A stretch of DNA of 64,000 nt from an uncultured Candidatus Saccharibacteria bacterium (GCA_964600695.1 CAZRKK010000002.1:5354-69353), one strand, 5' to 3'. Shown: positions 7,846-32,340, counted from the first letter of the stretch. Notes: generated by a model from the sequence alone, not told the origin. Numbers and translations are program-made.

Positions 7846-8088
7846 ATGGAAAAGCAAGTTACAAAACAACAAATGTCCGGCACTGTAGTGTCAAATAAGA
7901 TGGATAAAACCGTTGTGGTTAAGGTTGATATTTTAAAACGTCACCCTAAGTATCACAAGAGTTACACAAAATCTTATCGCTACAAAGCACATGACGAAGA
8001 CAACAGTTGCCAGATTGGCGATAAGGTTGTAATCGAAGCTATTCGTCCTATGAGCCGCGACAAGAAGTTTACAGTTTTAAAGAGCTAA
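7846..8088 (+). CDS. rpsQ: 30S ribosomal protein S17
   Basis: [16 protein letters not shown]....HPKY.K...YKAHDE...GD.V.I...RP.S motifs. Confidence 0.95.
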
Positions 8089-8139
8089 GTCGCGGACAGC
8101 TAGTCGCAAATTACTCGTTACTAAATACTTAATAAATTT

Positions 8140-8511
8140 ATGTTACAAATAAGATCTTACATTAAAATCGCAGATAACACTGGCGCTAAAGTCGTCAACT
8201 TGTTCGCAGTGAACGGAAAAAACAAACGTCGCTTTGCACGAGTTGGGGATATTGTCGCTGGTTCAGTTCGCCAAGCTGCTCCTAATGGGCAGGTTAAGAA
8301 AGGTGATAAGATCTATGCAGTTATCGTTCGTACTAAAAAGGAAATTCGTCGTAAAGACGGTTCATACATCCGATTTGATGAGAACGCTGGCGTATTGGTA
8401 GATAAAGAAAAAGGTGAACCACGTGGTACTCGTATCTTTGGTCCAATCCCAAGAGAAGTCCGTGATGCTGGTTTTTCTAAAATCGCTTCATTGGCTCCAG
8501 AGGTTATCTAA
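8140..8511 (+). CDS. rplN: 50S ribosomal protein L14
   Basis: [17 protein letters not shown]...[11 protein letters not shown]; canonical L14. Confidence 0.97.
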
Positions 8512-8534
8512 CGCGACAAGTAATTTATTTATAT

Positions 8535-8858
8535 ATGACACAGATCAAGTTAAAAATTAAGAAAGGCGATACCGTTAAAGTATTGTCCGGTAAAGACAAG
8601 GGTAAGACTGGTAAAGTATTACGTGTTCTTCCAACTATCCAAAAAGTAGTTGTAGAAAACGTTAATATGCACACTAAGTTCGAGCGTAGCCGCCGAGCTG
8701 GTCAGCCAGGTCAGAAGATTGTATTTGCTGGAGTAATGGCTTCCTCTAAGGTTCAATTAATTGACCCTCATTCTGGTAAACCAACTCGGGTTAGCTTCCA
8801 GACCTTAGAAAATGGCACTAAGCAACGAATAGCTAAGCAGAGCGGAAAGGCCATCTAA
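8535..8858 (+). CDS. rplX: 50S ribosomal protein L24
   Basis: KIKKGDTVKVLSGKDKGKTGKVLRV KOW motif at the L24 position. Confidence 0.95.
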   Translation: MTQIKLKIKKGDTVKVLSGKDKGKTGKVLRVLPTIQKVVVENVNMHTKFERSRRAGQPGQKIVFAGVMASSKVQLIDPHSGKPTRVSFQTLENGTKQRIAKQSGKAI

Positions 8859-8862
8859 TTAT

Positions 8863-9402
8863 ATGAACAGATTACAAACACAATATAATAAAGAGATTGT
8901 CCCTGCGCTTAAAGAAAAGTTTGGTTACACAAATGTAATGGCAGTACCAAAGATTAAGCAAGTTAACCTCAACATTGGTGTCGGACGTTTCCTTAAAGAC
9001 AACAAGTTTATGGAATCAATTAAAAAAGATTTCACAAAGTTGGCTGGTCAAGCTCCGGTAGAAACCATGGCTCGTAAGTCTGTCGCTGGATTCAAAGTTC
9101 GTGAAGGCCAACAAGTCGGTCTAACAGTAACTATCCGCGGTAACCGCATGTACGAATTTCTAGATAAGTTGATCAGTGTGGCTATGCCTCGTGTCAAAGA
9201 TTTCCGTGGTGTGTCTCGTAAAGGTTTCGACGGACGTGGTAACTATAACCTTGGACTTAAAGAACATCTCGTATTCCCAGAAATTTCCCAAGAAGCTCTC
9301 GAACACATCTTCGGTCTTCAAGTAACGATAGTAACAAGCGCAGGTAAAGATGAACCTGCATATGAATTATTAAAGCAGATGAAGTTTCCCTTCAAAGATT
9401 AA
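8863..9402 (+). CDS. rplE: 50S ribosomal protein L5
   Basis: L5-like sequence (RLQTQYNKEIVPALKEKFGYTNVMAVPKI...GRGNYNLGLKE). Confidence 0.96.
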   Translation: MNRLQTQYNKEIVPALKEKFGYTNVMAVPKIKQVNLNIGVGRFLKDNKFMESIKKDFTKLAGQAPVETMARKSVAGFKVREGQQVGLTVTIRGNRMYEFLDKLISVAMPRVKDFRGVSRKGFDGRGNYNLGLKEHLVFPEISQEALEHIFGLQVTIVTSAGKDEPAYELLKQMKFPFKD

Positions 9403-13426: not shown

Positions 13427-13458
13427 AACTCCCTCTAGTAATTAGGGGGAGTTTTTTT
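13427..13458 (+). terminator. rho-independent terminator after secY
   Basis: aactccctc (13427-13435) pairs with gggggagtt (13445-13453), one G-U pair, followed by a T7 run. Confidence 0.75.
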
Positions 13459-13481
13459 ATTGGTATTTATTAGGAGTTTTG

Positions 13482-13490
13482 TGGTATAAT
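13482..13490 (+). promoter_or_regulatory. extended -10 promoter (TGgTATAAT)
   Basis: Exact TGGTATAAT, ending 9 nt before the ATG at 13500. Confidence 0.55.
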
Positions 13491-13499
13491 ATTCATATT

Positions 13500-13874
13500 A
13501 TGGCAGAAGAAATAAGAAAAATTCCTGGATTCGAATCAGAGCAATCTGCGGAACCAAATAGCAACGAGTCCCCAGAATCAGAACAGACTGAATCTCTAGA
13601 AGCATCGTCTTCGGAAACTCTGAGTGATAATAACTTAGACCAGCAGGATTTGAACGAGACACCAATTGAAGAAGAAGTCGATACATCTAACTTATCGATC
13701 GAATCAGCTTTAGAGCCCAAATCAGGAGTGACTGCTTCTGATTCTATTGCTTCCGAAAGTAACGATGAAGTTCTTTCTGAAAGATTGTTAGCCGACAGTA
13801 AAGAATTAGAGACTGCCACCGAAGCCCGTAAACTTTTAAATGATATCTTAGGCACAACCGAAACTAAAAACTAG
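13500..13874 (+). CDS. acidic S/E/D-rich, probably disordered protein
   Basis: 124 aa from the ATG at 13500. The TTG at 13479 in the ORF track overlaps the promoter. Low-complexity acidic composition, no family recognised. Confidence 0.5.
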   Translation: MAEEIRKIPGFESEQSAEPNSNESPESEQTESLEASSSETLSDNNLDQQDLNETPIEEEVDTSNLSIESALEPKSGVTASDSIASESNDEVLSERLLADSKELETATEARKLLNDILGTTETKN

Positions 13875-13909: not shown

Positions 13910-16468
13910 ATGCCTTTTGGATTTGAACTCAATACTGTAATTTATGCATCACTACTACTAGGAATTTTAGTAGTAGTGTTTTTGCTTGTCGCTGCTTATT
14001 ATATTCACAGGCATTGGTATTACAGTCATGTCATTTTACCCCGCACTAAAGAGTGGGTGTTTTTGGAAATTCAAATGCCAAAAGACAACAGCGAGGATAA
14101 AGAAAAATATCAACGCGATGAAGAAAAAAAATTACTAATTGGTATTGCCGAGCAATTATTCACAACTTTATCAGGAATTAGTCACACTAATTGGTTTTGG
14201 CAACCTAAAGAATATATAAGTTTTGAAATTGCGTGTACAGACAAAAAGATTTCCTTTTATATCAATTGTCCGCGTAAGCTTCAGGAGCTAATAGAAAAAC
14301 AAGTTCAAGCTCAGTACCCTCACGCTTTTATCGAGGAGATTAAAGGCTATAATCCCTTTCCAGAAACTGGGGAGATCGAAGCTACCGAGTTAAGATTGAC
14401 CAAGCCTTATATGTATCCTTTTCGTACTTACAAGAGTATGGAAACAGATCCATTGAATGCGTTAACAAACGCTATGTCAAAACTGAGCGATGGTGATGGG
14501 GCGGTTATTCAAATGATTTTGTATCCAGCAGGGGATCACTGGCAGCATCGTCCGCGGCACATGGCTTTAGAAATTCAGCAAGGTAAAAATCCGAACATTG
14601 TTGCCAAGAGTGCGTTTGGAAGATTTGCGCGCGAGGTAGGAAGCACAGCTAAGGATGGTGTCTTAGGTGGAACTCAGTTAAGTAAAGATCAAATGCAACA
14701 ACGTACCGATTTGTCGGGACGTTATTCGGCCATCAACTTAACTCCGATGCAACAAGACATGGTTAAGCGTTTCGAAGAAAAAGCTAGCCGCCCAGGCTTC
14801 TATACCAACATTCGTATTGTCACAGCATCACCAACTCCTGGAACAGCTAAAGTGAATATGCATAATTTAGTGTCTTCATTTTTGCAGTACAACATGCCGC
14901 CGTTTAATGGTTTTAGAGTTAAGCGTCGTGCTAAGAAGCGTATTATTAAAGATTATATTTTTAGAATTTATCGCCGCTACGGACGTAAGTCTATTTTAAA
15001 TACCGAAGAATTAACTAGTATTTGGCATCTTCCGACTCCATTTTTGGAAACACCTAATATTAAATGGTTGTTATCTAAAAAAGCTCCACCACCTATAAAC
15101 TTGCAACCAGAAGGAATATTACTAGGCCGAAATATATATCGTGGGCAGGAGACACCAATTCATATGGCACGTGATGATCGTCGTCGTCACATGTATATTT
15201 TGGGACGTACTGGTGTGGGTAAAACCGAAATCATGAAATACATGTCCGTTCAAGATATCAAGAACGGTGATGGAATTTGTATTATCGATCCTCATGGTGA
15301 TTTTATTGAAGATGTTTTACCTCACATTCCAAAAGAACGAGCCGAAGATGTAATCTTATTTGACCCATTCGATACCGACAGGCCGATGGGTTTGAACATG
15401 CTCGAAGTCACTAGTGAAGGTCAAAAAGATTTTGCTGTTCAAGAAATGATCTCTATCTTTTATAAATTAGTTACAGATCCTGCGATGCTTGGACCTATGT
15501 TCGAGCACAACATGCGTAATGCCATGCTAACCTTAATGGCTGACGAAGAAAATCCTGGAACTATTGTTGAAGTCCCACGTATATTTACGGACACTGAATT
15601 CCAAAAGTATAAAGTCTCTAAATTAAATGATCCTGTGGTAAGAGCATTTTGGGAGAAAGAAATGGCCAAGACTTCCGATTTTCATAAGTCGGAAATGTTA
15701 GGTTACTTAGTTTCTAAAGTAGGCCGCTTTGTAGAAAATTCCATGATGCGAAATATTGTTGGTCAACCAAAGAGTTCTTTTAACTTCCGTGATATCATGG
15801 ATAACAAAAAAATTCTTTTGGTGAATTTAGCAAAGGGTAAAGTAGGGGAGGTGAACGCAAAATTAATTGGCTTAATTTTAGTGAGTAAAATTCAAATGGC
15901 GGCATTGTCCCGTGCAGATATTCCAGAAAGCGAACGCCAAGATTTCTATTTATATGTTGATGAATTCCAAAACTTTATTACCGATGCTTTTTCTTCTATT
16001 TTGAGCGAAGCCCGTAAGTATCGATTGAATTTGATTATTGGTCATCAGTTCTTAGCTCAGTTGGGGCAAGCAGCTGGTGCGCAAGGTGCAGCTAGTAACG
16101 ATTTACGTGATGCTGTGTTTGGTAATGCTGGTAGTATGGTAACTTTCCGTATTGGTGTAGAAGATAGTGAAGTTATGGCAAAGGAGTTTGCACCAACTTT
16201 TAATGAGTTTGATTTATTAAATGTCGATAGATTTAATGCTTTTGTAAAGTTGATGATTAATGGAACAGCCAGCAAACCATTTAACATGGCCACATACCCC
16301 TTAGCTAAACCAACTGAAGATCAAAAGAAGACAGGGGATGCTATTCGACAGTTATCAAGGTTAAAATTTGGTCGTCCACGGGCCGAAGTTGAAGCAGAAA
16401 TCCTAGAAGCCAGCCAAGTTGCTGATATGATGGCGGCTGGTCCAGGGAGTATCGAGAAAACGGTTTAA
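13910..16468 (+). CDS. membrane-anchored P-loop NTPase, TraG/VirD4 (type IV coupling protein)-like, FtsK-HerA superfamily
   Basis: N-terminal TM helix (VIYASLLLGILVVVFLLVAAYYI). Walker A is LGRTGVGKTE and IIDPHGDF follows it. Walker B is FYLYVDEFQNF, then ARKYRLNLIIGHQFLAQL, resembling the TraG-D_C region. Confidence 0.7.
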   Translation: MPFGFELNTVIYASLLLGILVVVFLLVAAYYIHRHWYYSHVILPRTKEWVFLEIQMPKDNSEDKEKYQRDEEKKLLIGIAEQLFTTLSGISHTNWFWQPKEYISFEIACTDKKISFYINCPRKLQELIEKQVQAQYPHAFIEEIKGYNPFPETGEIEATELRLTKPYMYPFRTYKSMETDPLNALTNAMSKLSDGDGAVIQMILYPAGDHWQHRPRHMALEIQQGKNPNIVAKSAFGRFAREVGSTAKDGVLGGTQLSKDQMQQRTDLSGRYSAINLTPMQQDMVKRFEEKASRPGFYTNIRIVTASPTPGTAKVNMHNLVSSFLQYNMPPFNGFRVKRRAKKRIIKDYIFRIYRRYGRKSILNTEELTSIWHLPTPFLETPNIKWLLSKKAPPPINLQPEGILLGRNIYRGQETPIHMARDDRRRHMYILGRTGVGKTEIMKYMSVQDIKNGDGICIIDPHGDFIEDVLPHIPKERAEDVILFDPFDTDRPMGLNMLEVTSEGQKDFAVQEMISIFYKLVTDPAMLGPMFEHNMRNAMLTLMADEENPGTIVEVPRIFTDTEFQKYKVSKLNDPVVRAFWEKEMAKTSDFHKSEMLGYLVSKVGRFVENSMMRNIVGQPKSSFNFRDIMDNKKILLVNLAKGKVGEVNAKLIGLILVSKIQMAALSRADIPESERQDFYLYVDEFQNFITDAFSSILSEARKYRLNLIIGHQFLAQLGQAAGAQGAASNDLRDAVFGNAGSMVTFRIGVEDSEVMAKEFAPTFNEFDLLNVDRFNAFVKLMINGTASKPFNMATYPLAKPTEDQKKTGDAIRQLSRLKFGRPRAEVEAEILEASQVADMMAAGPGSIEKTV

Positions 16469-16509: not shown

Positions 16510-16538
16510 TTGACAAAATCAACTATTTGTGATATTAT
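16510..16538 (+). promoter_or_regulatory. near-consensus sigma70 promoter with extended -10
   Basis: TTGACA (16510-16515), 17-nt spacer, TGaTATTAT (16530-16538). Confidence 0.65.
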
Positions 16539-16593
16539 ATTCGCAGTAGTTTTTTTGTAGTTTAAATCAATTTAGTTGGAGGACTTTGTTAAT

Positions 16594-17064
16594 ATGTATA
16601 AAAACTCGTTGGTCATGAAGATGATCCTAACGTTTGCGGCCTTTAGCGCCGTCGTTGTATTCCTGAACTACGTGGTCGGCATGCCGACTACTAAGCGCAT
16701 GAACTTCGTCTTGATGAGCTATGGTGTTGGTTCGGCCACCATCTTGGCTCTCGCGGCCGTTTTTCCGAGCCGTCTGACATCGGCGCTGTGCCGTCTTGTG
16801 CAGATTGGTTGGGCAGTGGCCATCGTTCTCGGTGGTTTTGCTATGATTATTATCATTGTGGTTGGTTTGGGGCAGTTTAACCTGCCGTTCCTATCGCTAC
16901 AGTGGTATAGCCTGTTCATGGCTTTAGGAATCTTGGGGGCCAGCGTGTTCATGTTTGTCAACGACTCGTATTTTGAAGTCGTTAACGAATATGAAAGCAA
17001 AGCTGGGAAGCCTAAGGTGGTGACACCGCCGGCAAACAGCACTTCGTCGAGCGTTTCGGCATAG
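16594..17064 (+). CDS. 4-TM membrane protein, G+C/CpG-rich coding sequence, no family recognised
   Basis: GGAGGA at 16578-16583, 10 nt before the ATG at 16594, which I prefer over the TTG at 16576. Four hydrophobic helices. Codon usage differs from neighbouring genes. Confidence 0.6.
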   Translation: MYKNSLVMKMILTFAAFSAVVVFLNYVVGMPTTKRMNFVLMSYGVGSATILALAAVFPSRLTSALCRLVQIGWAVAIVLGGFAMIIIIVVGLGQFNLPFLSLQWYSLFMALGILGASVFMFVNDSYFEVVNEYESKAGKPKVVTPPANSTSSSVSA

Positions 17065-17091
17065 AAACTCCGCACAAGGGTTAGAAGTATT

Positions 17092-17128
17092 GGGTAAGAG
17101 CGAAAATATTCGCTTTTACCCTTTTTTT
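17092..17128 (+). terminator. rho-independent terminator
   Basis: 11-bp stem gggtaagagcg (17092-17102) / cgcttttaccc (17111-17121) with one G-U pair, then T7. Confidence 0.8.
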
Positions 17129-17169
17129 ATTGCCTAAAATTGCCATTTTAAAATTTCTGTTATCAGCTA

Positions 17170-17198
17170 TTGACAAAACATCAAAAATAGTGTATACT
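17170..17198 (+). promoter_or_regulatory. near-consensus sigma70 promoter
   Basis: TTGACA (17170-17175), 17-nt spacer, TATACT (17193-17198). It shares the tattgacaaaa context with the promoter at 16510. Confidence 0.65.
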
Positions 17199-17233
17199 GT
17201 TACTTAAACTAAATATTGGTTAGAAAGTGAATT

Positions 17234-17346
17234 ACCTTCAGAAATTCAGATTTATCGAGATATGGTTTTCTGAAGGTCATGCACGTGTATGACTGTTGTA
17301 GCGCTGTAAATAAAAAAACAGCATTGTAACGGTCAATCACATGACC
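17234..17346 (+). ncRNA. structured 5' leader (four consecutive hairpins), candidate cis-regulatory RNA
   Basis: P1 17234-17277 has an 11-bp stem. P2 17276-17293 is a near-palindrome. P3 17295-17330 has a 13-bp stem with G-U pairs that work only on the + strand. P4 is 17331-17346. Confidence 0.4.
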
Positions 17347-17385
17347 AAGTTTTCAAAAACAGCCTAAGGAGGGCTAATCAATACT

Positions 17386-18102
17386 ATGCAGAAATTCATT
17401 ATTTCGTTCGTTTTTGTCGCAATGTCACTTATGGCTGTTTCGTCGGCCTCGGCCCAGAATCCGGACTTGAACGTTCCGGTGCCTTCGGGAAAGACGCAGA
17501 CCACGAAGAGCCCGGACTTGAACGTTCCGGTGCCTAACAAGTCGGTTCAAAGTTCGGCTAACGTCTATAGGACGTACCGCAACACTACGGTCGTTAAGAA
17601 GTATTCCATGAACGGCGTCGACAAAGACGCTCGTGAAGTGAATGTCGCTCAGGACATTCGTATAAAAAAACTGGAAGACGGCAAGGCTAACTCGTCGGAC
17701 GTCGAAGCAGGATTTAAGTCGGTTGACGATCGTTTCGCGGCTAAGGATCAGGTGGATGCACGACAGGACCGAGAGCTCGGATATACTTTCTGGGCTTTCA
17801 TAATCATCCCGGTAGTCTTTCTGGTTCTGGCGTTGTTGTACTTCATGTTTGGAGGCAACAATAATAACGTTCAGGTTAACGGTGGTGGACATGCACCGGC
17901 ATACGTACCTCAGGCCCAGCCTGCAGTACAGCCGATACCATACTACCAGCCTATTCCTGCACAACCCGTTCCTGCGGCACAACCGGTTCCTGCAGCCAAC
18001 CAACAGCCAAGCGTAAATGTTCCGATCAATATTGCGGTCGAGCCGATTCAGATCGATCTCCGACCGTCGTTGCGTGGAACACCGCCGGCACCCGCTCAGT
18101 AG
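17386..18102 (+). CDS. secreted, TM-anchored protein with PDLNVPVP repeats and a P/Q-rich tail; G+C/CpG-rich coding sequence
   Basis: AAGGAGGG lies 9 nt upstream of the ATG. Signal peptide ends ...AVSSASA|Q. TM helix FWAFIIIPVVFLVLALLYFMF. 11 of 16 Ser codons are TCG. Confidence 0.65.
   Translation: MQKFIISFVFVAMSLMAVSSASAQNPDLNVPVPSGKTQTTKSPDLNVPVPNKSVQSSANVYRTYRNTTVVKKYSMNGVDKDAREVNVAQDIRIKKLEDGKANSSDVEAGFKSVDDRFAAKDQVDARQDRELGYTFWAFIIIPVVFLVLALLYFMFGGNNNNVQVNGGGHAPAYVPQAQPAVQPIPYYQPIPAQPVPAAQPVPAANQQPSVNVPINIAVEPIQIDLRPSLRGTPPAPAQ
17461..17535 (+). repeat. 24-nt exact direct repeat, two copies 51 nt apart
   Basis: ccggacttgaacgttccggtgcct occurs at 17461-17484 and 17512-17535, encoding PDLNVPVP twice. 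Confidence 0.9.
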
Positions 18103-18118
18103 TGAGCATCTCTCTTAC

Positions 18119-18149
18119 AGAGAGCAAGGTAAAACTTGCTCTCTTTTTT
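18119..18149 (+). terminator. rho-independent terminator
   Basis: Perfect 10-bp stem agagagcaag (18119-18128) / cttgctctct (18135-18144), then T6. Confidence 0.85.
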
Positions 18150-18167
18150 CATTTTTATAAAAAATAG

Positions 18168-18176
18168 TGGTATAAT
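18168..18176 (+). promoter_or_regulatory. extended -10 promoter (TGgTATAAT)
   Basis: Exact TGGTATAAT, 37 nt upstream of the ATG at 18213. Confidence 0.55.
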
Positions 18177-18212
18177 TAAAACAACTTTAAATTGTTAATT
18201 CGAAACAAAAAT

Positions 18213-21200
18213 ATGGCTAAAGCCGAAATGGCTCGTCAACCAGATCAAGGTCCAGAACCGGCAATTGACTTGTCGAAAACACTCAAAACCAGTGTAGATG
18301 ATGCTAAAAATAGAGCACGACCACGAGGCCGTGATGTTGATTTTGCTATCCAGCAGAATGATATGCGCGAAGCTAATTTAAGACAGGGTCATCCAGACAT
18401 ATCTGATAAAAAAGAGTTTATTCGACGGGAAAAGGCAAAGAACGAGGCGCGTAGTAAGTCTAAATCTGAAAAGGGACCTAAAAAGAATGAAGTAATTCTT
18501 CAACCTATAGCTCCGGCAGAAAAATTAAAAGCTGTAGTTAACCAAGAAAAAGCCGCGCAGAAACAAAAACCAGAGCAAAAGCCGGAAACACAGCCAGAAC
18601 AAAAGATAGCTCAACAAGAACAAAAAGCAGCCCAAGAAACCAGTAAAGTTGTAGAAAGTGTAGTTCAGGAAAGCACTAAAGAGATGTCCGCAGAAGTGGA
18701 CAAGGCACTTGCCGTACATGCAATTAGTCCAGAACATGCTCAGCAAGCCAAAGCAGTTATAAACAATGAACAGGTAAAGCAAGGAGTTTTTTCTAGAGCT
18801 TTTGGTGCTATAAAAGACAAAGCAGTGGGTGTTAAAGAGTGGTTTGCAGATAGTCCTAGGTTAACTTCACTTTTGGTTGGTGCGGGTACTGGTATGGGTG
18901 TTCGTTACGCTGTTAAGGCTGGGTTTATTGCTGCATTTGGAGCAAACTTACCTTGGTTGGTTGCCGCAGGTGCCACTGCAGGTGGTTTACTAGAAGGTGG
19001 GCGTTCATTTTGGCGTGAATCAAAATCCTATCAATCTAAAGAGATTATGGATCGGTTCAGAAGCGCGGATTATCTAGAAAAGGCAGCCATGCTTTCTAAG
19101 CTTGAGGAAGCATACAAAACCCAAAGATTTGATGCGTCTCCAGAAGGTTACCAAGAAATTGGTACAGCTTTGGCTCATGCTCGAACAGAAATGCAACTTG
19201 AATTAGACAAAAAGGATGGCAAGTTTGCTAATCATTCCGATCGAGATAAAATTCAATATATTTTAAATTTATCACAAGGTATTAAGGGTGAAATTCATAA
19301 AGATAATCGTGGTAAGGAAGCCAGAAAGCTTATTCGTGACATCGAAAAGAGCTTAGAGTACAAGCGTGATTTTAAAGGTGTCTTACAGAACAAAAAGATG
19401 GTAGTTGCCAAGGCAGCTCTTAAAGGTGCAGCTTATGGTGGGCTGGGTTCATTAATCGGTGGGGCAGTATCACACTATTTCTTCGAAAGTGGAACAACTC
19501 AAACTGTCAGCCATGTTGTCGAGAACAGACCTACTGTGGCAGATCATTTTACAAAACATTTAGATCATCGAGGTTTAACCGGTGGTGCTCGTGATTCATT
19601 GCATGATTTGATAGAAGAACAAAGAGGTATTGATCCTAATTTTGCCGAAGGAGTCACTGTAGAGCAACTAGTTTATGCAGAAGACACTCTCGCTAAAGAG
19701 GCTATTAAAAATGGCGTTAAGTCTGGCGTTTCGGAGCATACTTGGACTCATGATGAGTTGATGCGAGCCTTAGAAAAATCTGGAGCGGTTGGAGATAGTT
19801 CTACGCTTACTGAAGCAGGAGAAAGGAATATCGGACGATTGATTTCGCATCGACCTCATTTCTTGTCCGAAGCTACCAAAGAGAAAATGCTTGATTTTAC
19901 ACCTAAAGATTTTAATGTAGTTGTTGAGCAAATTACTTCTCAACCAGAAAATATCGTTCTCTCAAACGAAGATTATGCAGCTATTATTGGTGCACTAACC
20001 CTAGTAGCGGCTTCAGAAGTGGCTAGTGCCGCCGACAGAAGAATCGCTAAGAATCGGCTTGAACAAATGCAAGCGAATCCTCCAACTGGCCAGCCAGGGG
20101 ATGGTGTAGAAACAGCTCCAGCTAATAATGTTGTATGGCCTACAGAAGGTGTTCTTACTGCAGAAGAAGCACGTGTGGATAATAGAAAATTCCCTAATGG
20201 CCCACCACCGTCACCATTTGATGGTAATGTAGAAACTACTCCTACACCTAAACCAGAGGGTAGTCCTTTTGATGACGAAAAAAAGCAAAATGCAGAGTCG
20301 ACTACTAATAAAGCAGGTAAGGTTGAGGAAATTGACGAAGATGTTGAAGCTCAAGTGGATGTACAAGATTTGCCTGGTGTAGAAAAAATCAAAGACTCGG
20401 AAGTTACTCCCGATGCAATTAATCGAAAACTGAAGAGTGCAAAAGTTAATGCAGAAGTAGTACCATGGCCTTTAGAAAAGATTACCAACAAACAGAAAGG
20501 ACAAATTAACAGATTAACTGATTTATATATTTCTTCGGCACGCAAGTTAAACGCCTTAAATATTACAAATAAGGTTGTCTTGAATTTTTATCCAACAGGT
20601 TCAAGAGAGTTAGATTTTACAGATTCTGAATTTACCGCTGGTATTCCTCTTAGTGATAAAACTTATAATAAAAAGAGCTTCGAGAGCTTAGTAGATAGGA
20701 TGATTGAAACTAAGATTTCCGAAAAGTTTGCTGAAATACAAAATAACTATGCATTTCAAACAGAGATGCCTGTCATAGGAAATTCAGAGGATGATCAAGC
20801 TGTTGAACAGTATAAAGCTTTAGATAAATTCCAGCGAAACATGGAAGCAATCGACGCAAAAGAATTAAAACGACTAACTTCTGGACTTAAGAAAGTTACA
20901 ATTGGTGACTATTCATTTATAGGTACTGATGAGGTGGTTCTACCAATGTTTATTAGAGACAACAGGGGTTATCATTATAAATCTTTCAAGCCTAACCAAT
21001 TAAAGGGTATGTTGAAAGAGTATTCCAAAGATCGGTTTGCGTTAAAGCCGATGGATTTAAAAGAGCAGAATGATAAATATCCAAATATTGGAGCAGATAA
21101 AAACTTTTACGATAATATCGAGGAAGCTGAGAGGATAAAAGCAGAAGAATTAGTATACAGTGTTATTGAAAATGAATTCAAAGATGGTTTTCCACCAAAC

Positions 21201-21806
21201 GTAAAGGTATTGTTTTCGGATAGATTCCAGTCAAAGCCAGGTGTCTTATACCTCGACATGTCAAAGTTTGACCAAGCATATATTAGTCGTCAGCTTCACC
21301 AAGGATTGCGTCGTTCTGCGCCAGATCGTTTACAGCGCACTCCTGGTCCTGTTAAAGAGCGTTTAAAGCGGGTTTCTCCTGATTATGGGAATAAAAAGTC
21401 TGACCAAGACAAAGCCATTGAAGCAGCTGTTGATAGAATAATTCGACCCGAAGATTGGGAGAAAAAAGAAACTGGGCCAGCTAATTTAAACCATATTGAA
21501 GAACAGAACGGAGAAGATGAGCTCTATAGTTTACTTGGAGACATAGATAAGAAATATCCAGGGTCTATCTCCGAAAGCATGCAAAAAAAGATCTCTAGTT
21601 ACTTAAAAGACAATAATTTATCAGCAGAGGATTTACTAACCGCCGATAAATTACCTAAAATTACGAGTGTTCTTCCTAAAAAACTTGAGCAGTACATAGC
21701 CGAAGAGTCGTTTGCTAAACTAGAAAAACTGGCAATGGCCGACGAGGATTATACTGACGAAGGCATTAGATTAAAAAATCAGTTAGAAGAATTCATCAAA
21801 AAATAA
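18213..21806 (+). CDS. giant (~1197 aa) multi-TM protein, no family recognised
   Basis: I prefer the ATG at 18213 over the TTG at 18192. The protein has a K/Q/E-rich N-terminal region, G/A-rich hydrophobic segments (e.g. SLLVGAGTGMGV...LPWLVAAGATAGGLL), a P-rich linker and a ~500-aa C-terminal region. Confidence 0.6.
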   Translation: MAKAEMARQPDQGPEPAIDLSKTLKTSVDDAKNRARPRGRDVDFAIQQNDMREANLRQGHPDISDKKEFIRREKAKNEARSKSKSEKGPKKNEVILQPIAPAEKLKAVVNQEKAAQKQKPEQKPETQPEQKIAQQEQKAAQETSKVVESVVQESTKEMSAEVDKALAVHAISPEHAQQAKAVINNEQVKQGVFSRAFGAIKDKAVGVKEWFADSPRLTSLLVGAGTGMGVRYAVKAGFIAAFGANLPWLVAAGATAGGLLEGGRSFWRESKSYQSKEIMDRFRSADYLEKAAMLSKLEEAYKTQRFDASPEGYQEIGTALAHARTEMQLELDKKDGKFANHSDRDKIQYILNLSQGIKGEIHKDNRGKEARKLIRDIEKSLEYKRDFKGVLQNKKMVVAKAALKGAAYGGLGSLIGGAVSHYFFESGTTQTVSHVVENRPTVADHFTKHLDHRGLTGGARDSLHDLIEEQRGIDPNFAEGVTVEQLVYAEDTLAKEAIKNGVKSGVSEHTWTHDELMRALEKSGAVGDSSTLTEAGERNIGRLISHRPHFLSEATKEKMLDFTPKDFNVVVEQITSQPENIVLSNEDYAAIIGALTLVAASEVASAADRRIAKNRLEQMQANPPTGQPGDGVETAPANNVVWPTEGVLTAEEARVDNRKFPNGPPPSPFDGNVETTPTPKPEGSPFDDEKKQNAESTTNKAGKVEEIDEDVEAQVDVQDLPGVEKIKDSEVTPDAINRKLKSAKVNAEVVPWPLEKITNKQKGQINRLTDLYISSARKLNALNITNKVVLNFYPTGSRELDFTDSEFTAGIPLSDKTYNKKSFESLVDRMIETKISEKFAEIQNNYAFQTEMPVIGNSEDDQAVEQYKALDKFQRNMEAIDAKELKRLTSGLKKVTIGDYSFIGTDEVVLPMFIRDNRGYHYKSFKPNQLKGMLKEYSKDRFALKPMDLKEQNDKYPNIGADKNFYDNIEEAERIKAEELVYSVIENEFKDGFPPNVKVLFSDRFQSKPGVLYLDMSKFDQAYISRQLHQGLRRSAPDRLQRTPGPVKERLKRVSPDYGNKKSDQDKAIEAAVDRIIRPEDWEKKETGPANLNHIEEQNGEDELYSLLGDIDKKYPGSISESMQKKISSYLKDNNLSAEDLLTADKLPKITSVLPKKLEQYIAEESFAKLEKLAMADEDYTDEGIRLKNQLEEFIKK

Positions 21807-21809
21807 GCC

Positions 21810-22124
21810 ATGATTAAAGATACAATAGACAAGGTTCTTAAAGAGTTAAACGTCAACAATCTATCTGATGATGATAAGTTTGCGGTGATGGAGCAACTTA
21901 CAGAGCACTTTAACAAAATCATTCTAGACACAGTACTAGCTAATCTTAATGACGAGCAACTCCTCGAGTTTAAGAATATGGTTGATCTGGAGGATTTAGA
22001 TAAAATGGAAGAAGGAATTGCTCTTATTGTAGCCAAAATTCCCGCAATAAACTTTAAAATCGAAGAAGCCATTAATAATGAAATCGCTCATATTAAAGAA
22101 TCCAAAGCGATAATCGATCGATAG
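21810..22124 (+). CDS. small acidic helical protein, hypothetical
   Basis: 104-aa ORF starting 3 nt after the giant gene's stop, so probably co-transcribed. Confidence 0.5.
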   Translation: MIKDTIDKVLKELNVNNLSDDDKFAVMEQLTEHFNKIILDTVLANLNDEQLLEFKNMVDLEDLDKMEEGIALIVAKIPAINFKIEEAINNEIAHIKESKAIIDR

Positions 22125-22234: not shown

Positions 22235-22882
22235 ATGGATAAATCAGCAAATTTTGCTTTGATCGTGCAAATGATCGAAGCTGCAGAAAAGAATATTCAA
22301 TCGGCTAAGCATTTATTGCGAGAAATGGCCGGTGGAACTGTATCTAAATCTTCCACTAACTTTTTAGAAAAGGCTAGTGGTCTTGATGTTAGTCAAGGTG
22401 GTAAAGTTGTCGAGGGTGTGTTTGATGGACAAAACATGATTGGTCCGGATAGCAAACAGTACCCAGTTCCAGCTAATTATGCATCCAAATCCAAATTAGT
22501 TGAAGGTGATGTGCTTAAATTAACAATCGCAGATGACGGCTCGTTTATTTATAAGCAGATTGGGCCAGTTGAGCGTCGCAAGTTGATTGGTGTGTTAATG
22601 CAGGACGAAAATGGTGATTATAAAGTTATCGCAGATGGCAAAACTTTTCGGGTTTTATTGGCTTCACTTACTTATTTTAAAGCTCAGGGTGGTGACGAAG
22701 TAACTATTGTTGTCCCTAGTGAAGGTGATACTCAATGGGCTGCAGTAGAAAATGTGATCAAGCATTTAGGTGGTGACGGAAGTTCCGACGGGGAATTTAG
22801 TGCATCCGCTGGGCTGCAAGACCAAAAAGATGAAGACATGGAAGCTGAGGGTTTAGCCTCTGGCGAGACAGAAGAATTTTAA
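22235..22882 (+). CDS. hypothetical protein with acidic C-terminal tail
   Basis: 215-aa ORF, no family recognised. Confidence 0.5.
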   Translation: MDKSANFALIVQMIEAAEKNIQSAKHLLREMAGGTVSKSSTNFLEKASGLDVSQGGKVVEGVFDGQNMIGPDSKQYPVPANYASKSKLVEGDVLKLTIADDGSFIYKQIGPVERRKLIGVLMQDENGDYKVIADGKTFRVLLASLTYFKAQGGDEVTIVVPSEGDTQWAAVENVIKHLGGDGSSDGEFSASAGLQDQKDEDMEAEGLASGETEEF

Positions 22883-23722: not shown

Positions 23723-25273
23723 ATGGCAGTATTTTACCAAACATATCGACCACAAAATTTTTTGGAAGTCATTGGCCAAGAGGCGATTGTTAAAACCCTT
23801 CAACAAGCTGTTGCAAGCGGGAAGATTGGTCATGCTTATTTGTTTACCGGCAGTCGTGGTATAGGAAAAACTACACTAGCAAGGATACTGGCTAAGGCCG
23901 CTAACTGTAATACTCTTAAAGATGGTAACCCTTGTGGGATTTGTGATATTTGTTTAAATATCGCCAATGGTTCCTTCTTGGATGTAATAGAAATTGACGC
24001 TGCATCTCATACTGGTGTAGATAACATCCGCGAACTCATCGAACATATTAGATTTCAACCTTCACAGGGTAGAACTAAAGTTTTTGTAATAGACGAAGTA
24101 CATATGCTTTCCAAAGCAGCCTTTAATGCTTTACTCAAAACTTTAGAAGAACCACCATCACATGTCTTGTTCATTTTAGCTACTACTGACATAGAAAAAG
24201 TTCCGGATACGATTATTTCTCGAACTCAGCGATTTGATTTTAGAAAGATTACTACCGATCAAATTAAAAAAGCTTTGCAACAAATTGTTAAGGTAGAAAA
24301 ATTATCTTTGCCAGAAGAGGCTATTGATGTCATTGTCGAAAATAGTGAAGGTGGTTTACGAGATGCTTTATCTCAATTATCATTAGCTGCTCATTTAGAT
24401 AGCTCTGCAAAGGCAGAAGACATTCATTTGTTGTTGGGAACAACATCACGGTCATCAGTTTTGGAGTTGTTGAATTTAATTTCCGAAGGTAAGACTTATG
24501 AGTTAAACGCTTTTTTTAACAAATTAACTCAAGCTAATTTTGATGCTGTTTCTTTTGCCAGAAAGACTTTAGTTATTTTACAGGAGCATTTAGAGGCAAA
24601 TCTTTCTGCTTCGAGTGACGGTAAAAATGGCGCTAATGATTTGATTGCAAGTCTTAGCCTTGCTCAGTTACTTTACATTATTCGATTGTTTATGCGAGCT
24701 TACAAAGAGATTGATAAAGCCTTAACTCCAGAACTTCCCTTGCTAATGGCTAGTATCGAAGCGGCGTTATTTATTAAACCTAACTCGACAATTTCTGTGG
24801 AAAAAGGCCGAAGTGAGCAAAGTAGCTCCGCGGCTACAGCATCGATAATTTCTACAAGTGAATTAGTGGATATACCAATTCAAAAGCAACCAGTTTTTGC
24901 TACAGAAAATATCGAGCCCGAGCAGGATAGTGATTTAAATTTAACAGCTGAACAGGTTAAAGAGTGGTGGCCTGGTCTTGTAGCAGAAGTGAAGGCAGTG
25001 AACAGCCCTTTGTCTACTTTGTTAAAAAATTCTCCTATCCATGAGGTTTCCGGTAATCGAGTCAGTGTAATGGTTAGATACCTTTTCCATAAAGAACATT
25101 TAGAAAATGCCAAGATTCGCGTGATGATTTCCAATTATCTAGGCGAAAAAGCTGGTGGAAACGTAGAATTTAGAGTAGTGATCCAAAAAGATTCGGTTGG
25201 AGAACAAATCGTTGATACGGCCTCTGCTGTATCTGATGCAATAAAAATATTCGGTGGCGAATTGGTGGAGTAA
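23723..25273 (+). CDS. dnaX: DNA polymerase III subunit gamma/tau
   Basis: YRPQNFLEVIGQE...GHAYLFTGSRGIGKTTLARILAKAANC...C..C..C zinc module...FVIDEVHMLS...SRTQRFDF. Confidence 0.93.
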   Translation: MAVFYQTYRPQNFLEVIGQEAIVKTLQQAVASGKIGHAYLFTGSRGIGKTTLARILAKAANCNTLKDGNPCGICDICLNIANGSFLDVIEIDAASHTGVDNIRELIEHIRFQPSQGRTKVFVIDEVHMLSKAAFNALLKTLEEPPSHVLFILATTDIEKVPDTIISRTQRFDFRKITTDQIKKALQQIVKVEKLSLPEEAIDVIVENSEGGLRDALSQLSLAAHLDSSAKAEDIHLLLGTTSRSSVLELLNLISEGKTYELNAFFNKLTQANFDAVSFARKTLVILQEHLEANLSASSDGKNGANDLIASLSLAQLLYIIRLFMRAYKEIDKALTPELPLLMASIEAALFIKPNSTISVEKGRSEQSSSAATASIISTSELVDIPIQKQPVFATENIEPEQDSDLNLTAEQVKEWWPGLVAEVKAVNSPLSTLLKNSPIHEVSGNRVSVMVRYLFHKEHLENAKIRVMISNYLGEKAGGNVEFRVVIQKDSVGEQIVDTASAVSDAIKIFGGELVE

Positions 25274-25360: not shown

Positions 25361-26995
25361 ATGTTTACTAACCCAGAACAAAAAAATAAAAAGATTACCT
25401 TTGCAGTAATAGCGATGGCGGTCGTTGCTTTGGCCGTGGTAACAATATGGCAACCAGGAGAGTTAAGCTTCACGGATAAAACAGATTACAATGCTGAGAC
25501 ACAAAGAGCTCAGGCTGAATTAGCACAATACAAAGCCTTTTTAGCGGAACTTGAACCAAATTACGAAGCTAGTCAACAGTTATTAAAAAAGATTGCTAGT
25601 GCAGATGTAGTTCGTGCAGAAGTTGAGCAGACTTTACAGACAAAGCAGAAAATTGTTATTCCACAAATCGCCAACTCCGAATTAAATATCAGCGATCGTA
25701 AGGATAAAGACTTTGTTTTAAATTATTTGAACACAGTTAGTTCCATGGTGGCTAATTACAAAAATGCAGTTCAACCCGGAACTAATGATTTATTTGTTGA
25801 TAATGCCAACTCTGCTAGTTTGGCTAGGGCTAAGTCGGAAACCGATAGATTTTTAGCAAATTTACGCGGTGTGTCTGTGCCTGCTAGTTTAGTTGAATTA
25901 CACAAAGCTAATATTGTTTCTTTTCAAAAGTACGGACAAATTTTTAATGATGCAGCAAGTTATAGCGAGGGAAGTAACATCGATCCATGGCCAAGTTTCT
26001 ACCAGAGTTACGCTGTGATCGATAATAGATTAGCTGTAGTAAGTAACGAATTAACAAAAGTTGGAAATCAGTTTGCTTTAGCCGAAGAGTTAGAGCGCGC
26101 AACAGGGCCACCATTTATTAAAGTAGCTCAAGCTCAATTAGGTGGTGTGGTAGTAGTTTCTACAGATTTAAAGCGTGATATTTTGGAAGGCATTAAAGAA
26201 GGTTTGGCTAAGTCTTTTGCAAACTTTTCCATGAAGATGCTAGATAAATTAGTCTCTCATATCGAAAAAAGTTTTGCTATTGCTAGTCAACTATATTATT
26301 CCAATGAGCTTGGTAGGTTCTATTCTGTTGAGTATATGAAGAAATTTGTTTCTGATCCACTGGACCAAAGTATTATCCAAAAGTTTTTACCCGAATACTT
26401 TTGTATCGCGCCAAACAAAAAAGATTTGAATAAAATCTTTGTAGCCAAGGCAGCCGAAAATGTGGGTAATGATATAACCATTAATCCGAATGATCCAGAC
26501 TTTGTAGAAAAACTAGCACGGTTGGGAAGTGATGAAAAAAATTATCCACAATGGTGGGAAGGTTACTATCAAGGTTTGGCAGCACAAACAAAGGCAGAGG
26601 CCGAAAGTGCTTCTACTAAAGAAGTTTTGAGCCCTGGAGTAAAAACCGGGAGAGACATAATTACTAACCAAGTTAACAAAACAGTTTCGGCAATTTTCAG
26701 TGTACAAGAAGCGGCAATTTCTGGAGCAATTAACTTAGGAACCAATAACACAGGTAGCCCTGTGAGTCAGTTAGTTTCTGGTGTGGTAGAAGGCTTGGTT
26801 AATAAATTTGTGTTTACCCCAATAAGTGGTGGAGCTTCTAGTGGCGGTGGGATTGGCGTTATCCAAGAAAAAAATGTTTGTCTACAAACTCAAGAGATTA
26901 AGCCTTTGATTCCATTACCTTCATCGGAATACGAAACACCTACAGGAACAACTACAGCTCCAGTTACATCACCACCGTTTGTACCACGTAATTAA
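25361..26995 (+). CDS. membrane-anchored or secreted hypothetical protein
   Basis: 544 aa with N-terminal TM helix (ITFAVIAMAVVALAVVTIW) and a G/S/T/P-rich C-terminus. No family recognised. Confidence 0.55.
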   Translation: MFTNPEQKNKKITFAVIAMAVVALAVVTIWQPGELSFTDKTDYNAETQRAQAELAQYKAFLAELEPNYEASQQLLKKIASADVVRAEVEQTLQTKQKIVIPQIANSELNISDRKDKDFVLNYLNTVSSMVANYKNAVQPGTNDLFVDNANSASLARAKSETDRFLANLRGVSVPASLVELHKANIVSFQKYGQIFNDAASYSEGSNIDPWPSFYQSYAVIDNRLAVVSNELTKVGNQFALAEELERATGPPFIKVAQAQLGGVVVVSTDLKRDILEGIKEGLAKSFANFSMKMLDKLVSHIEKSFAIASQLYYSNELGRFYSVEYMKKFVSDPLDQSIIQKFLPEYFCIAPNKKDLNKIFVAKAAENVGNDITINPNDPDFVEKLARLGSDEKNYPQWWEGYYQGLAAQTKAEAESASTKEVLSPGVKTGRDIITNQVNKTVSAIFSVQEAAISGAINLGTNNTGSPVSQLVSGVVEGLVNKFVFTPISGGASSGGGIGVIQEKNVCLQTQEIKPLIPLPSSEYETPTGTTTAPVTSPPFVPRN

Positions 26996-30850: not shown

Positions 30851-31489
30851 ATGCTTATTCCGGCAATATTAGAAAATAATAAAAAGAAATATTTAGAAAA
30901 TCTAAAAGCAGTTTTAGCATTGAAGAATATCAAGTCTATACAAATAGATTTTGCCGATGGGGAATTTGTGGCCACTAAAACTTTACCAATCGCCGAGATA
31001 GAACTTCCTGCAAGGTCTAAAATTTTGTTCGAAGCACATTTGATGGTTAAAGAACCCAAGGATTTTGTTTTGTATCAAAAGGCTGGGTTTAAAAAAATCA
31101 TCGTTCATTACGAAGCTTTTAAAAGTGAACTTGATTTAGAAGCAGCTATAGAAGAAATAAAAAAGTTAAAAATGATTCCTGCAATAGCCATTTCTCCAAC
31201 TAGTGAAATTTCTGTAATTCGTTATCATACTGATACAATCAAGGACTTCACTTTGTTGGCTGTGGTTCCGGGTAGGCAAGGACAAAAAATGTTACCAGAA
31301 ACTTTTGATCGACTTCGAGAATTAAGAGATCATGCCCCAGGTGCAAATATCGAGATAGATGGCGGAGTTGATGGTAAAAATATTGCTTCTTTAATAGACG
31401 CCGGCGCAACAGATTGCGTAGCAGGTTCAAGTTTACTAAGAGGTGATATTAAAGAGAATTATAAAGTGCTTATGGAGGCTTTAAAATAA
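30851..31489 (+). CDS. rpe: ribulose-phosphate 3-epimerase (divergent)
   Basis: 212 aa with IDFADGEFV, HLMV, VHYEA, VVPGRQGQK and IEIDGGV, aligned with the Rpe barrel pattern. Confidence 0.72.
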   Translation: MLIPAILENNKKKYLENLKAVLALKNIKSIQIDFADGEFVATKTLPIAEIELPARSKILFEAHLMVKEPKDFVLYQKAGFKKIIVHYEAFKSELDLEAAIEEIKKLKMIPAIAISPTSEISVIRYHTDTIKDFTLLAVVPGRQGQKMLPETFDRLRELRDHAPGANIEIDGGVDGKNIASLIDAGATDCVAGSSLLRGDIKENYKVLMEALK

Positions 31490-32340
31490 TGTCAAAACTT
31501 TCATCAACAGATTTACAACTAACTGCTAATAAAATTCGAGAAGATATTATCAGTATGTTAGTGGAGGCGGGGAGTGGTCACAGCGCCGGACCTTTAGGTA
31601 TGGCTGATGTTTTCACTGCTTTGTATTTTGAAGTCATGAATATTAATCCTCATGACCCTAATTGGGAAGAACGTGATTGGTTAATTTTATCGTGTGGCCA
31701 TATTTGTCCAGTGTTGTACGCAACAATGTCTGAACGTGGCTATTTCCCAGCGTCAGAATTAAAATCGCTTCGCAAGCTTGGTACTCGTTTGCAAGGACAT
31801 CCTCATAACTTATCTTTACCTGGCATAGAAACAACTAGCGGACCCTTAGCACAGGGTGCTTCTCAGGCTGTGGGAGTAGCTTTAGCAATGCGGATGAGTG
31901 GTAAAAAGAATCGTGTTTATTTAGTGATGTCGGATGGTGAGCAAAATGAAGGTCAGATTTGGGAAGCTGTTATGTTGGCTGGCAAAGAAAAACTTCATAA
32001 TCTTACTGCCATTATAGACCGCAATAATATTCAAATTGATGGTTATACAGAAGATGTTATGCCTTTGGACAATTTGAAAGCAAAGTACGAAGCCTTTAAT
32101 TGGCACGTTATAGAAGTTGATGGACACAATATTCAGGCAGTGATTAATGCCTATCGTGAAGCAGAGGCGGTGTATGAAAAACCAACAGTCATTATTGCGC
32201 ATACCATTCCAGGGAAGGGCGTGGACTTTATGGAGGGTAAGTTTGAATGGCATGGTAAACCACCAAAAGCTGACGAAGCCAAATTAGCTCTGCAAGAGCT
32301 ACGTACATTGCAAGGAAAAATTAAAAGTGAACATGAATAA
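31489..32340 (+). CDS. tkt: transketolase, N-terminal (TPP-binding) subunit
   Basis: GSGHSAGPLGMADV, GHP and SDGEQNEGQIWEA motifs. 283 aa, the split-type subunit. Confidence 0.9.
   Translation: MSKLSSTDLQLTANKIREDIISMLVEAGSGHSAGPLGMADVFTALYFEVMNINPHDPNWEERDWLILSCGHICPVLYATMSERGYFPASELKSLRKLGTRLQGHPHNLSLPGIETTSGPLAQGASQAVGVALAMRMSGKKNRVYLVMSDGEQNEGQIWEAVMLAGKEKLHNLTAIIDRNNIQIDGYTEDVMPLDNLKAKYEAFNWHVIEVDGHNIQAVINAYREAEAVYEKPTVIIAHTIPGKGVDFMEGKFEWHGKPPKADEAKLALQELRTLQGKIKSEHE

Follow-up and report, generated by a model that had tools for sequence, protein, structure and literature searches.

A chromosomal DUF8128-carrying ATPase of the type IV coupling protein family in Candidatus Saccharibacteria

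The stretch of DNA analyzed here, referred to as the window, comprises 64,000 nucleotides (nt) from an uncultured Candidatus Saccharibacteria bacterium (GCA_964600695.1, CAZRKK010000002.1:5354-69353), and the gene in question lies on its plus strand at 13910..16468, starts with ATG and encodes an ATPase of 852 amino acids (aa). We put the probability at roughly 55% that this ATPase represents a type IV coupling protein (T4CP) which has been domesticated on the chromosome of a bacterium of the Candidate Phyla Radiation (CPR)/Patescibacteria. Its architecture consists of a transmembrane (TM) anchor, a DUF8128 domain resembling the N-terminal domain of VirB4 in predicted fold, a VirD4/TrwB-type T4CP motor, and conserved C-terminal helices. 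The initial annotation, made from the nucleotide sequence, had described a membrane-tethered translocase with a HerA/VirD4-like motor and an unrecognised N-terminal domain as its substrate-recognition part. The open reading frame (ORF) is real, all of the motifs quoted for it were found in the translation and the alignment, and the protein is a P-loop translocase of the FtsK/HerA/VirD4 superfamily that is nearest by sequence to the VirD4/TrwB coupling proteins; the role given to the N-terminal domain had to be revised, as described below.

Motor, membrane anchor and DUF8128 domain

The motor extends over aa ~417-800 and is of the VirD4/TrwB type. Within aa 419-729, it passes the thresholds of two T4CP families in Pfam, TrwB_AAD_bind (PF10412, 41.3 bits against a cut-off of 20.5) and T4SS-DNA_transf (PF02534, 27.7 bits against 20.1); TraG-D_C scores slightly below its Pfam threshold, and DUF87 covers the P-loop region only (aa 425-479). 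The top NCBIfam matches are conjugative TraD and VirD4-like models, with CedD/CedB, HerA and one VirB4 model scoring below them. All of these top matches stay far under their cut-offs (best 50.9 vs 366), and since no equivalog or subfamily cut-off of NCBIfam is reached, the ATPase is a T4CP at the superfamily/Pfam level. The best sequence match in PDB is TrwB (E 5e-8, aa 417-727, including the all-alpha domain), followed by DotL. A profile built from a 44-sequence family alignment, which reaches down to 32% identity, was compared with reference proteins by hhalign and gave 96% probability with R388 TrwB over the nucleotide-binding and all-alpha domains, 84% with pSK41 TrsK, and 9% with TrwK, while only 111 columns aligned with the VirB4 protein TrsE. 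A Firmicute VirB4 profile aligned across the whole motor at 70% probability; the homologue search with the Bacillus plasmid VirB4 had returned only 6 sequences, which makes for a shallow profile. In place of a formal phylogeny, the affiliation of the motor was ranked by the scores of 10 reference ATPases with a hidden Markov model (HMM) of the family motor, with TrwB at 38 bits, the Embleya VirB4-like ATPase at 27.5, TrsK and TrsE at 24 each, TcpA at 12, FtsK at 9.4, TrwK at 1, TcpF at 0.5, and the Bacillus AAA_10 VirB4 at -0.9.

Two other members of the superfamily were considered and rejected as identities. HerA was set aside on the restriction of DUF87 to the P-loop, the scores of the NCBIfam HerA models (12.8-16.3 bits against cut-offs of 800-970), and the lack of a nurA gene near the ATPase gene; a HAS barrel was likewise not found. 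FtsK was rejected on its 9.4 bits with the family HMM, the lack of a match to FtsK_SpoIIIE (PF01580) at E ≤ 1 in Pfam, and a C-terminus that consists of two helices only and has no winged-helix gamma domain.

The catalytic motifs are well preserved in the translation and the family alignment. Walker A (GRTGVGKT) occupies aa 432-439 (15203..15226, plus strand), and its residues G432, G437, and K438 are invariant in the 44 sequences; ICIIDPHGDF follows at aa 456-465, and Walker B (FYLYVDE) lies at aa 679-685 (15944..15964, plus strand) with invariant D684 and E685. Further downstream on the same strand, ARKYRLNLIIGHQFLAQL (aa 701-718, 16010..16063) pairs with GRKAGLRVVAGLQSTSQL of TrwB in the hhalign alignment; K703, Q713, and Q717 of this segment are invariant, and R702 is conserved in at least 90% of the sequences. 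With the labels carried over from TrwB, R702/K703 are what we take to be the arginine finger, and Q713 the sensor glutamine. An all-alpha domain is inserted in the nucleotide-binding domain at aa ~501-626 (15410..15787, plus strand), where the AlphaFold2 (AF2) model places helices over aa 503-631 and both hhalign and phmmer match the all-alpha-domain region of TrwB. The protein ends in a tail (aa 801-852, 16310..16465, plus strand) of two conserved helices at aa 803-820 and 824-842, which by analogy with the tails of T4CPs (PMC12624023) is a candidate partner-binding tail.

The sole hydrophobic segment of the protein by hydropathy is aa 3-36, and the AF2 model has one long helix at aa 9-47, so that the two together place a single N-terminal TM helix at aa ~9-32 (13934..14005, plus strand). 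Because the basic residues H33, R34, H35, R45, and K47 come after this helix, the N-terminus would lie outside and the remainder of the protein in the cytoplasm.

The region between anchor and motor contains the DUF8128 domain (aa ~45-400, 14042..15109, plus strand), an alpha/beta fold of two halves with a variable loop of low confidence between them (aa ~233-272, nt 14606-14725). For aa 1-415, no match was obtained even at E ≤ 1 in the local Pfam copy, which lacks the PF26449 model, and the local NCBIfam scan returned nothing; the precomputed annotation of a newer Pfam release assigns PF26449 (DUF8128) to an identical protein (P0001) and to all of the 120 homologues listed. The domain described as unrecognised was thus already catalogued, and what remains of that description is that its function is unassigned; a literature search with the name "DUF8128" returned no paper. 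The structure of aa 36-415 was predicted from a 92-sequence alignment with a predicted local distance difference test score (pLDDT) of 77.7 and a predicted template modelling score (pTM) of 0.76, the one low-confidence loop being the only variable stretch of the domain. When this model was searched with Foldseek, as the initial annotation had proposed for the separated domain, the top 14 matches were all TrwK chains (E 7e-6 to 5e-3, probability 0.99-1.00, template modelling score about 0.42). The predicted fold of DUF8128 therefore appears to match that of the VirB4/TrwK N-terminal domain, and the novelty claimed for the domain is lost in part, the model resembling a known and well-studied structure.

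In the R388 machine, the N-terminal domains of VirB4 join both protomers of each dimer, are embedded in the membrane, and touch VirB3/VirB8 (PMC12857230). Such contacts point to a docking or oligomerisation role of the domain rather than to substrate recognition, a task that in T4CPs is attributed to the all-alpha domain together with the C-terminal tail (PMC12624023). The proposal of a novel N-terminal domain for substrate recognition is thus not upheld, since the domain is already known as DUF8128, has a predicted VirB4/TrwK-like fold, and T4CPs use other parts for this purpose.

Conservation of the family and its plasmid relatives

The family is large and uniform in its architecture. With the whole protein as query, scores were obtained for approximately 2,000 homologues, and the N-terminal 380 residues alone matched at least 2,257 cluster representatives (50% identity clusters, E ≤ 1e-3). 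The order of TM helix, DUF8128, and T4CP motor is fixed, because all eight of the long representatives scanned (809-1,422 aa) carry a T4CP motor after DUF8128. A scan of one genome per species yielded at least 600 loci, of which the best 80 were examined; nearly all of the specifically named ones among these 80 are metagenome-assembled genomes of Patescibacteria, and some of the labels are obviously wrong.

The ATPase is conserved at the level of a core gene, close to SecY. Between the window and CP064996.1, the orthologues are 88% identical for the ATPase, 92% for SecY, 81% for L15, and 69% for DnaX, and in a second genome the values are 72% for the ATPase, 77% for SecY, and 59% for L15. The all-alpha domain is the best-conserved region in the close clade (mean majority-residue fraction 0.93), and across the whole family its conservation nearly equals that of the catalytic core. 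The base composition of the gene (GC content 0.39, GC content at third codon positions, GC3, 0.33) is like that of host genes.

Outside CPR, two-part proteins of DUF8128 and a T4CP motor were found on plasmids by tblastn and HMMs, with 20-28% identity to the ATPase and scores of 56-126 bits with the N-domain HMM and 126-292 bits with the motor HMM. As TrwB reaches only 38 bits against the 126-292 of these plasmid proteins, the CPR branch is deep and separate. In Bacillus subtilis NRS6107_2, the gene of a 913-aa relative (WP_213380696.1) has a member of the replication-relaxation family next downstream, then a gene for conjugal transfer, TcpE, and a VirB4 of 854 aa (AAA_10, E 4e-83). In Embleya, a PrgI-family gene and a VirB4-like ATPase stand before the 812-aa relative (WP_331738717.1), and Replic_Relax (E 2.7e-36) and NlpC/P60 after it. 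On the plasmid of Haladaptatus (NZ_CP085307.1), a VirB4-like ATPase is followed by a free-standing 350-aa DUF8128 protein (WP_227779071.1, L086:11794-12846), which scores 117.7 bits with the N-domain HMM, and then by an 895-aa T4CP (WP_227779072.1, 12929-15616); this haloarchaeal pair is a natural split version of the fused CPR/Bacillus protein. Another DUF8128-carrying relative is an 800-aa ATPase of Clostridium botulinum.

The ancestry of the family is conjugative, because a VirB4 encoded separately adjoins these distant plasmid relatives, joined by a relaxase-family gene in the case of Bacillus and Embleya. DUF8128 thus represents an ancient accessory part, either fused or in a gene of its own, in a single branch of the coupling proteins, and the ancestral role was conjugative coupling. 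Linkage of related proteins to relaxases, which the initial annotation had named as an argument against its proposal, was found for distant plasmid relatives of the same architecture and not for the related CPR genomes.

Motor-only relatives of about 395-432 aa that do not carry DUF8128 were also observed on IMG/VR contigs and on an alphaproteobacterial plasmid, for instance at 7932-9230 of IMGVR_UViG_3300015370_000561 (locus L090) and, as an orphan gene, at L103:10046-11233 on a Sulfitobacter plasmid. These soluble proteins have no TM helix. With the motor HMM of the CPR family they reach 361-517 bits, on a par with some CPR members, and they also match the PADLOC mad8 model.

Genomic surroundings in the window and in related loci

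The ATPase gene stands among chromosomal housekeeping genes. The ribosomal operon and secY lie upstream of it, and GtrA, dnaX, HtrA, ruvX, genes of the pentose-phosphate pathway and glycolysis, recJ, murA, and penicillin-binding proteins lie downstream; no relaxase, integrase, VirB4, or other transfer gene was found within the 64-kb window. Right after the secY stop codon, a strong intrinsic-terminator-like hairpin with a T-run (13427..13453, plus strand; a 12-pair stem and then TTTTTATT) splits the ribosomal/secY operon from a unit made up of a small ORF and the ATPase gene. An extended -10-like element, TGgTATAAT (13482..13490, plus strand), was read from the sequence and is the putative promoter of this unit; the consensus scan did not report it, and the 19-nt spacer to a possible -35 element, TTGGTA at 13460-13465, exceeds the range of the scan tool. 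Owing to the terminator after secY and the -10-like element before the small ORF, the adjacency to secY is not operonic. It was rejected as a functional link on account of that terminator and of its confinement to close relatives.

The small ORF (13500..13874, plus strand) encodes a strongly acidic, low-complexity protein of 124 aa from the ATG at 13500, with a TTG start at 13479 as an alternative, and stops 35 bp before the ATPase gene. Among the 70 loci in which the sequence before the ATPase gene spans at least 1 kb, 45 have a small ORF on the same strand whose end lies less than 150 bp in front of that gene. These ORFs are poorly conserved and have no Pfam match (further examples are L006:9308-9832 and L034:9471-9881); their median length is 154 aa, the gap to the ATPase gene is often only 5-54 bp, and they form several clusters that look unrelated to one another and whose amphipathic C-termini are conserved. 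It is possible that the upstream small ORF encodes a partner or adaptor of the motor.

The recurrent gene order is small ORF - ATPase - p215 - dnaX. In the window, p215 (22235..22882, plus strand) encodes an uncharacterised, CPR-specific protein of 215 aa, and dnaX (23723..25273, plus strand; DNA_pol3_delta2, E 1.7e-45) encodes the tau/gamma subunit of DNA polymerase III. Each of the two neighbors the ATPase gene in 21 of 62 loci, and both are present in 17. Weak matches of p215 to the MazE/AbrB and UPF1-1B beta-barrel families were obtained in 18-22 of 30 members (MazE/AbrB in 18 of 30). The p215 family is very large, with at least 8,000 candidates scored, all of them significant, and it has no Pfam family; its members possess an almost invariant beta-rich core (VIEGVFDGQNMIGPDGKQYPVPANYASKSKLVEGDVLKLTI...) and an acidic C-terminal tail ending in EEF/EEL, which is reminiscent of tail-in-pocket motifs such as the tip of the single-stranded DNA-binding protein and the TraD tail. 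In 10 Microgenomatia loci, a XerC/D-type tyrosine recombinase gene (Phage_int_SAM_1 and Phage_integrase, ~286 aa) lies in convergent orientation ~400 bp downstream of the ATPase gene, for example at L057:13082-13942. In Peribacteria loci, a peptidoglycan hydrolase-like protein (3D and PG_binding_1) is encoded nearby, mostly downstream (e.g., L049:4194-5723). Neither virB4 nor a relaxase cluster was found among the recurring neighbors of the 80 species-level related loci.

In the window, an insertion of four additional genes (16576-22124) separates the ATPase gene from p215. This gap is a variable insertion site in the clade of the window; in locus L002, it contains a gene for a 1,742-aa protein kinase. 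The ORFs at 16576-17064 and 17386-18102 encode small membrane or secreted proteins and have GC 0.50-0.52 and GC3 0.56-0.64, against about 0.38 and about 0.30 for their neighbors. A promoter close to consensus stands in front of each of them (TTGACA-17-TATTAT at 16510 and TTGACA-17-TATACT at 17170), and a strong terminator lies at 17092-17121, so that 16510-18102 looks like a recently acquired mini-island beside the ATPase gene. The next gene (18192-21806) encodes a K/E-rich, mostly low-complexity protein of 1,204 aa with glycine-rich hydrophobic patches and no family match, which is 27% identical to a 1,130-aa counterpart in CP064996.1. It is followed at 21810-22124 by a gene for a 104-aa DUF5663-related protein, with 33% identity to a DUF5663 gene that stands right after the ATPase gene in locus L002. 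For the small acidic ORF, mem162, mem238, the 1,204-aa protein, p104, and p215, searches of Pfam, NCBIfam, PDB, and PADLOC gave nothing firm. Downstream of dnaX, 25361-26995 encodes a protein of 544 aa that has a single TM helix at its N-terminus and was assigned to no family; a counterpart of 33% identity stands at the same position in locus L005. The transketolase of the window is split into N-terminal and C-terminal genes (31489-32340 and 34125-35135), with a gene for a 585-aa DUF2339 membrane protein between them (32368-34125).

Function, alternatives and comparison with known systems

As the ATPase gene is unlinked to relaxases and conserved like a core gene, a function common to the whole lineage has probably taken over from its conjugative role. 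Quinonero-Coronel et al. (2025; PMC12102498) surveyed 3,035 Patescibacteria genomes and counted 5,713 VirD4-type T4CP homologues in 2,918 of them; only 148 of these homologues are near virB4, and only 109 relaxases were found in the same set of genomes. The VirB4 of Patescibacteria is described there as a clade of its own, encoded near dnaA, and exaptation of the T4CP homologues as "not ruled out". The ATPase is almost certainly part of this set of orphan Patescibacteria T4CPs, and its interpretation as a domesticated T4CP agrees with the survey. The essential T4SS cluster of S. epibionticum was noted to have no recognisable coupling protein (PMC10633639).

Under this interpretation, the protein would form a hexameric ring, driven by ATP and anchored by one helix, on the cytoplasmic side of the membrane. 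The VirB4-like domain may dock or oligomerise the ring on a membrane platform, for which VirB3/VirB6/VirB8-type parts of a Patescibacteria type IV secretion system (T4SS), encoded elsewhere in the genome, would be the likely partners. The conserved all-alpha domain and the tail would engage one conserved substrate or adaptor, and the substrate would most likely be a nucleic acid or a nucleoprotein complex that is threaded through the ring towards a membrane channel. A bolder proposal, in which a lineage-wide inner-membrane motor docked at the VirB4 site moves nucleic acid, for example by importing host RNA or DNA via a T4SS or pilus, is speculative and at present doubtful.

Several observations weigh against the reading as a domesticated T4CP. 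No T4SS component, and in particular no homologue of virB3, virB6, or virB8, was found in the window or the related loci, and its coupling to a T4SS is for that reason inferred. In S. epibionticum ML1, the T4CP homologue, possibly of the DUF8128 type, is reported to be non-essential for epibiotic growth and the T4SS genes to be essential (PMC12102498). By sequence profile, the N-terminal domain did not match TrwK, TrsD, or the Firmicute VirB4 profile, and its HMM gave no match on the VirB4 references, so that the link between DUF8128 and VirB4 is one of predicted fold. Moreover, the full-length AF2 model has a pTM of 0.52, and the arrangement of the domains in it is unreliable for this reason.

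The ATPase might instead be a T4SS-independent housekeeping translocase of nucleic acid, which would act on the cell's own chromosome in segregation or dimer resolution in the manner of FtsK, or import DNA or RNA via another channel, and which would retain from its conjugative ancestor no more than the ATPase and the parts that dock it on the membrane. Conservation at core-gene level fits such a role, as do the occurrence of T4CP homologues in 96% of Patescibacteria genomes, mostly unlinked to virB4, the dispensability of the ML1 homologue beside an essential T4SS (both PMC12102498), and the DNA-related neighbors, namely dnaX in 21 of 62 loci, p215 with its weak AbrB/MazE matches, and the convergent XerD-type gene of 10 Microgenomatia loci; the mechanism by which the phylum takes up host RNA is also unresolved (bioRxiv 10.64898/2026.06.21.733656). 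However, the dnaX and xerD neighborhoods are each restricted to clades and the latter gene is convergent rather than operonic, the FtsK_SpoIIIE match and the gamma domain are missing, the Saccharibacterium TM7x has a separately annotated ftsK (PMC10768705), and a VirB4-type docking domain makes most sense beside membrane components of a T4SS, which leaves this role unlikely but worth keeping in view. A further alternative is a divergent VirB4-type ATPase, that is, an assembly or pilus motor of a T4SS with a VirB3-like TM anchor fused in front, and the predicted N-domain fold followed by a RecA-like C-terminal domain, the length of 852 aa, which is typical of VirB4 (TrwK has 823 aa), and the Firmicute VirB4 profile that spans the whole motor at 70% probability all point in this direction. 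The sequence of the motor speaks against it: none of the VirB4 families CagE_TrbE_VirB, AAA_10, and TraC_F_IV matched at E ≤ 1 in Pfam, the sole NCBIfam VirB4 match is 16 bits against a cut-off of 590, and with the motor HMM none of TrwK, TcpF, and the Bacillus VirB4 exceeds 1 bit, against 38 for TrwB. Furthermore, the plasmid relatives are accompanied by a genuine, separately encoded VirB4, those of Bacillus and Embleya directly adjoin a relaxase-family gene, which is the usual place of a coupling protein, and Patescibacteria have their own VirB4 clade elsewhere, near dnaA (PMC12102498); this identity is therefore improbable.

T4CP family membership, the Replic_Relax genes beside the plasmid relatives, and the foreign composition of the two genes directly downstream (16576-18102, GC 0.50-0.52) would also suit an integrated element, conjugative or mobilisable, whose coupling protein is still at work and delivers a relaxase-DNA complex to a conjugative T4SS. 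Such an active element was rejected as highly improbable, given the lack of transfer genes within 64 kb, the host-like GC and GC3 of the ATPase gene, and its syntenic position beside secY, dnaX, or p215 across species-level genomes; the small number of relaxases relative to T4CP homologues (PMC12102498) is a further argument against it. An anti-phage defence ATPase related to MADS Mad8 or DndH/DptH was suggested by PADLOC matches to mad8 (57.9 bits, E 2.9e-16, aa 423-725) and DndH (E 6.7e-5) and by the motor-only relatives on viral contigs and an alphaproteobacterial plasmid. However, these matches extend no further than the P-loop motor that the proteins have in common, and nearby there is neither a methyltransferase nor a nuclease nor any other defence gene, MADS or Dnd partner genes included. 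The fixed position, the SecY-like conservation, and the near-universal presence (PMC12102498) are the opposite of a defence island, so that this identity was likewise rejected and has hardly any probability left.

For the favored reading as a domesticated T4CP, part of the ground was already known, as the group is annotated, was counted in the literature as orphan T4CP homologues in 2025, and has a Pfam accession for its N-terminal domain. New here is the assignment of DUF8128, by predicted structure, to the fold of the VirB4 N-terminal domain, and the recognition that DUF8128 marks a distinct T4CP branch with conjugative relatives, including the split haloarchaeal form. The SecY-level conservation, the unusually conserved all-alpha domain, and the order small ORF - ATPase - p215 - dnaX are new as well. 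The position of VirD4 in the T4SS is unresolved, and it has been proposed that VirD4 replaces VirB4 at the center of the inner-membrane complex (PMC12624023). A large T4CP subfamily with an apparently VirB4-type N-terminal domain would provide a concrete, testable docking module for coupling proteins, and it may link the sister ATPases VirB4 and VirD4 in evolution. If the bolder proposal of a lineage-wide nucleic-acid motor at the VirB4 site were true, the family would be a surviving VirB4/VirD4 intermediate and would directly support a coupling protein that takes the central place of VirB4. Patescibacteria depend on macromolecules derived from their hosts, and their T4SS is essential yet has neither a recognised coupling protein nor a relaxase in its gene cluster (PMC10633639); a near-ubiquitous orphan T4CP conserved like SecY is an obvious candidate component.

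Among known systems, the ATPase differs from FtsK/SpoIIIE, TcpA, and HerA in having no gamma domain, HAS barrel, or NurA partner, and TcpA scores 12 bits with the family HMM. With VirB4 (TrwK of R388; the C-terminal domain of the Thermoanaerobacter protein, 4ag5), it shares the order of an alpha/beta N-terminal domain and a RecA-like motor; it differs in that its N-terminal domain has no sequence-level similarity to VirB4, its motor sequence is nearer to VirD4, no VirB4 Pfam family is matched, and virB3, virB6, and virB8 are not adjacent. The VirD4/TrwB-type T4CPs (TrwB of R388, TrsK of pSK41, TraD, DotL, and Cag-beta) resemble the ATPase in the N-terminal membrane anchor, Walker A and B, the RK/Q motif, and the inserted all-alpha domain, and the ATPase passes the Pfam thresholds of two of their families. 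They usually have two TM helices, whereas the ATPase has one; it also possesses ~350 extra residues (DUF8128) between anchor and motor and, unlike them, shows no linkage to a relaxase or T4SS in the 64-kb window and the 80 related loci. The orphan T4CPs of Patescibacteria (PMC12102498) are likewise mostly far from virB4 and without relaxases; the T4CP passages of that survey count homologues and do not mention the N-terminal domain, the degree of conservation, or the neighborhood. The plasmid DUF8128 coupling proteins of monoderm bacteria and archaea differ in being plasmid-borne within conjugation clusters that have a separate VirB4, and in Haloarchaea the coupling protein is encoded by two genes rather than one fused gene, but they have the same two-part architecture and are the nearest relatives outside CPR that carry the N-terminal domain.

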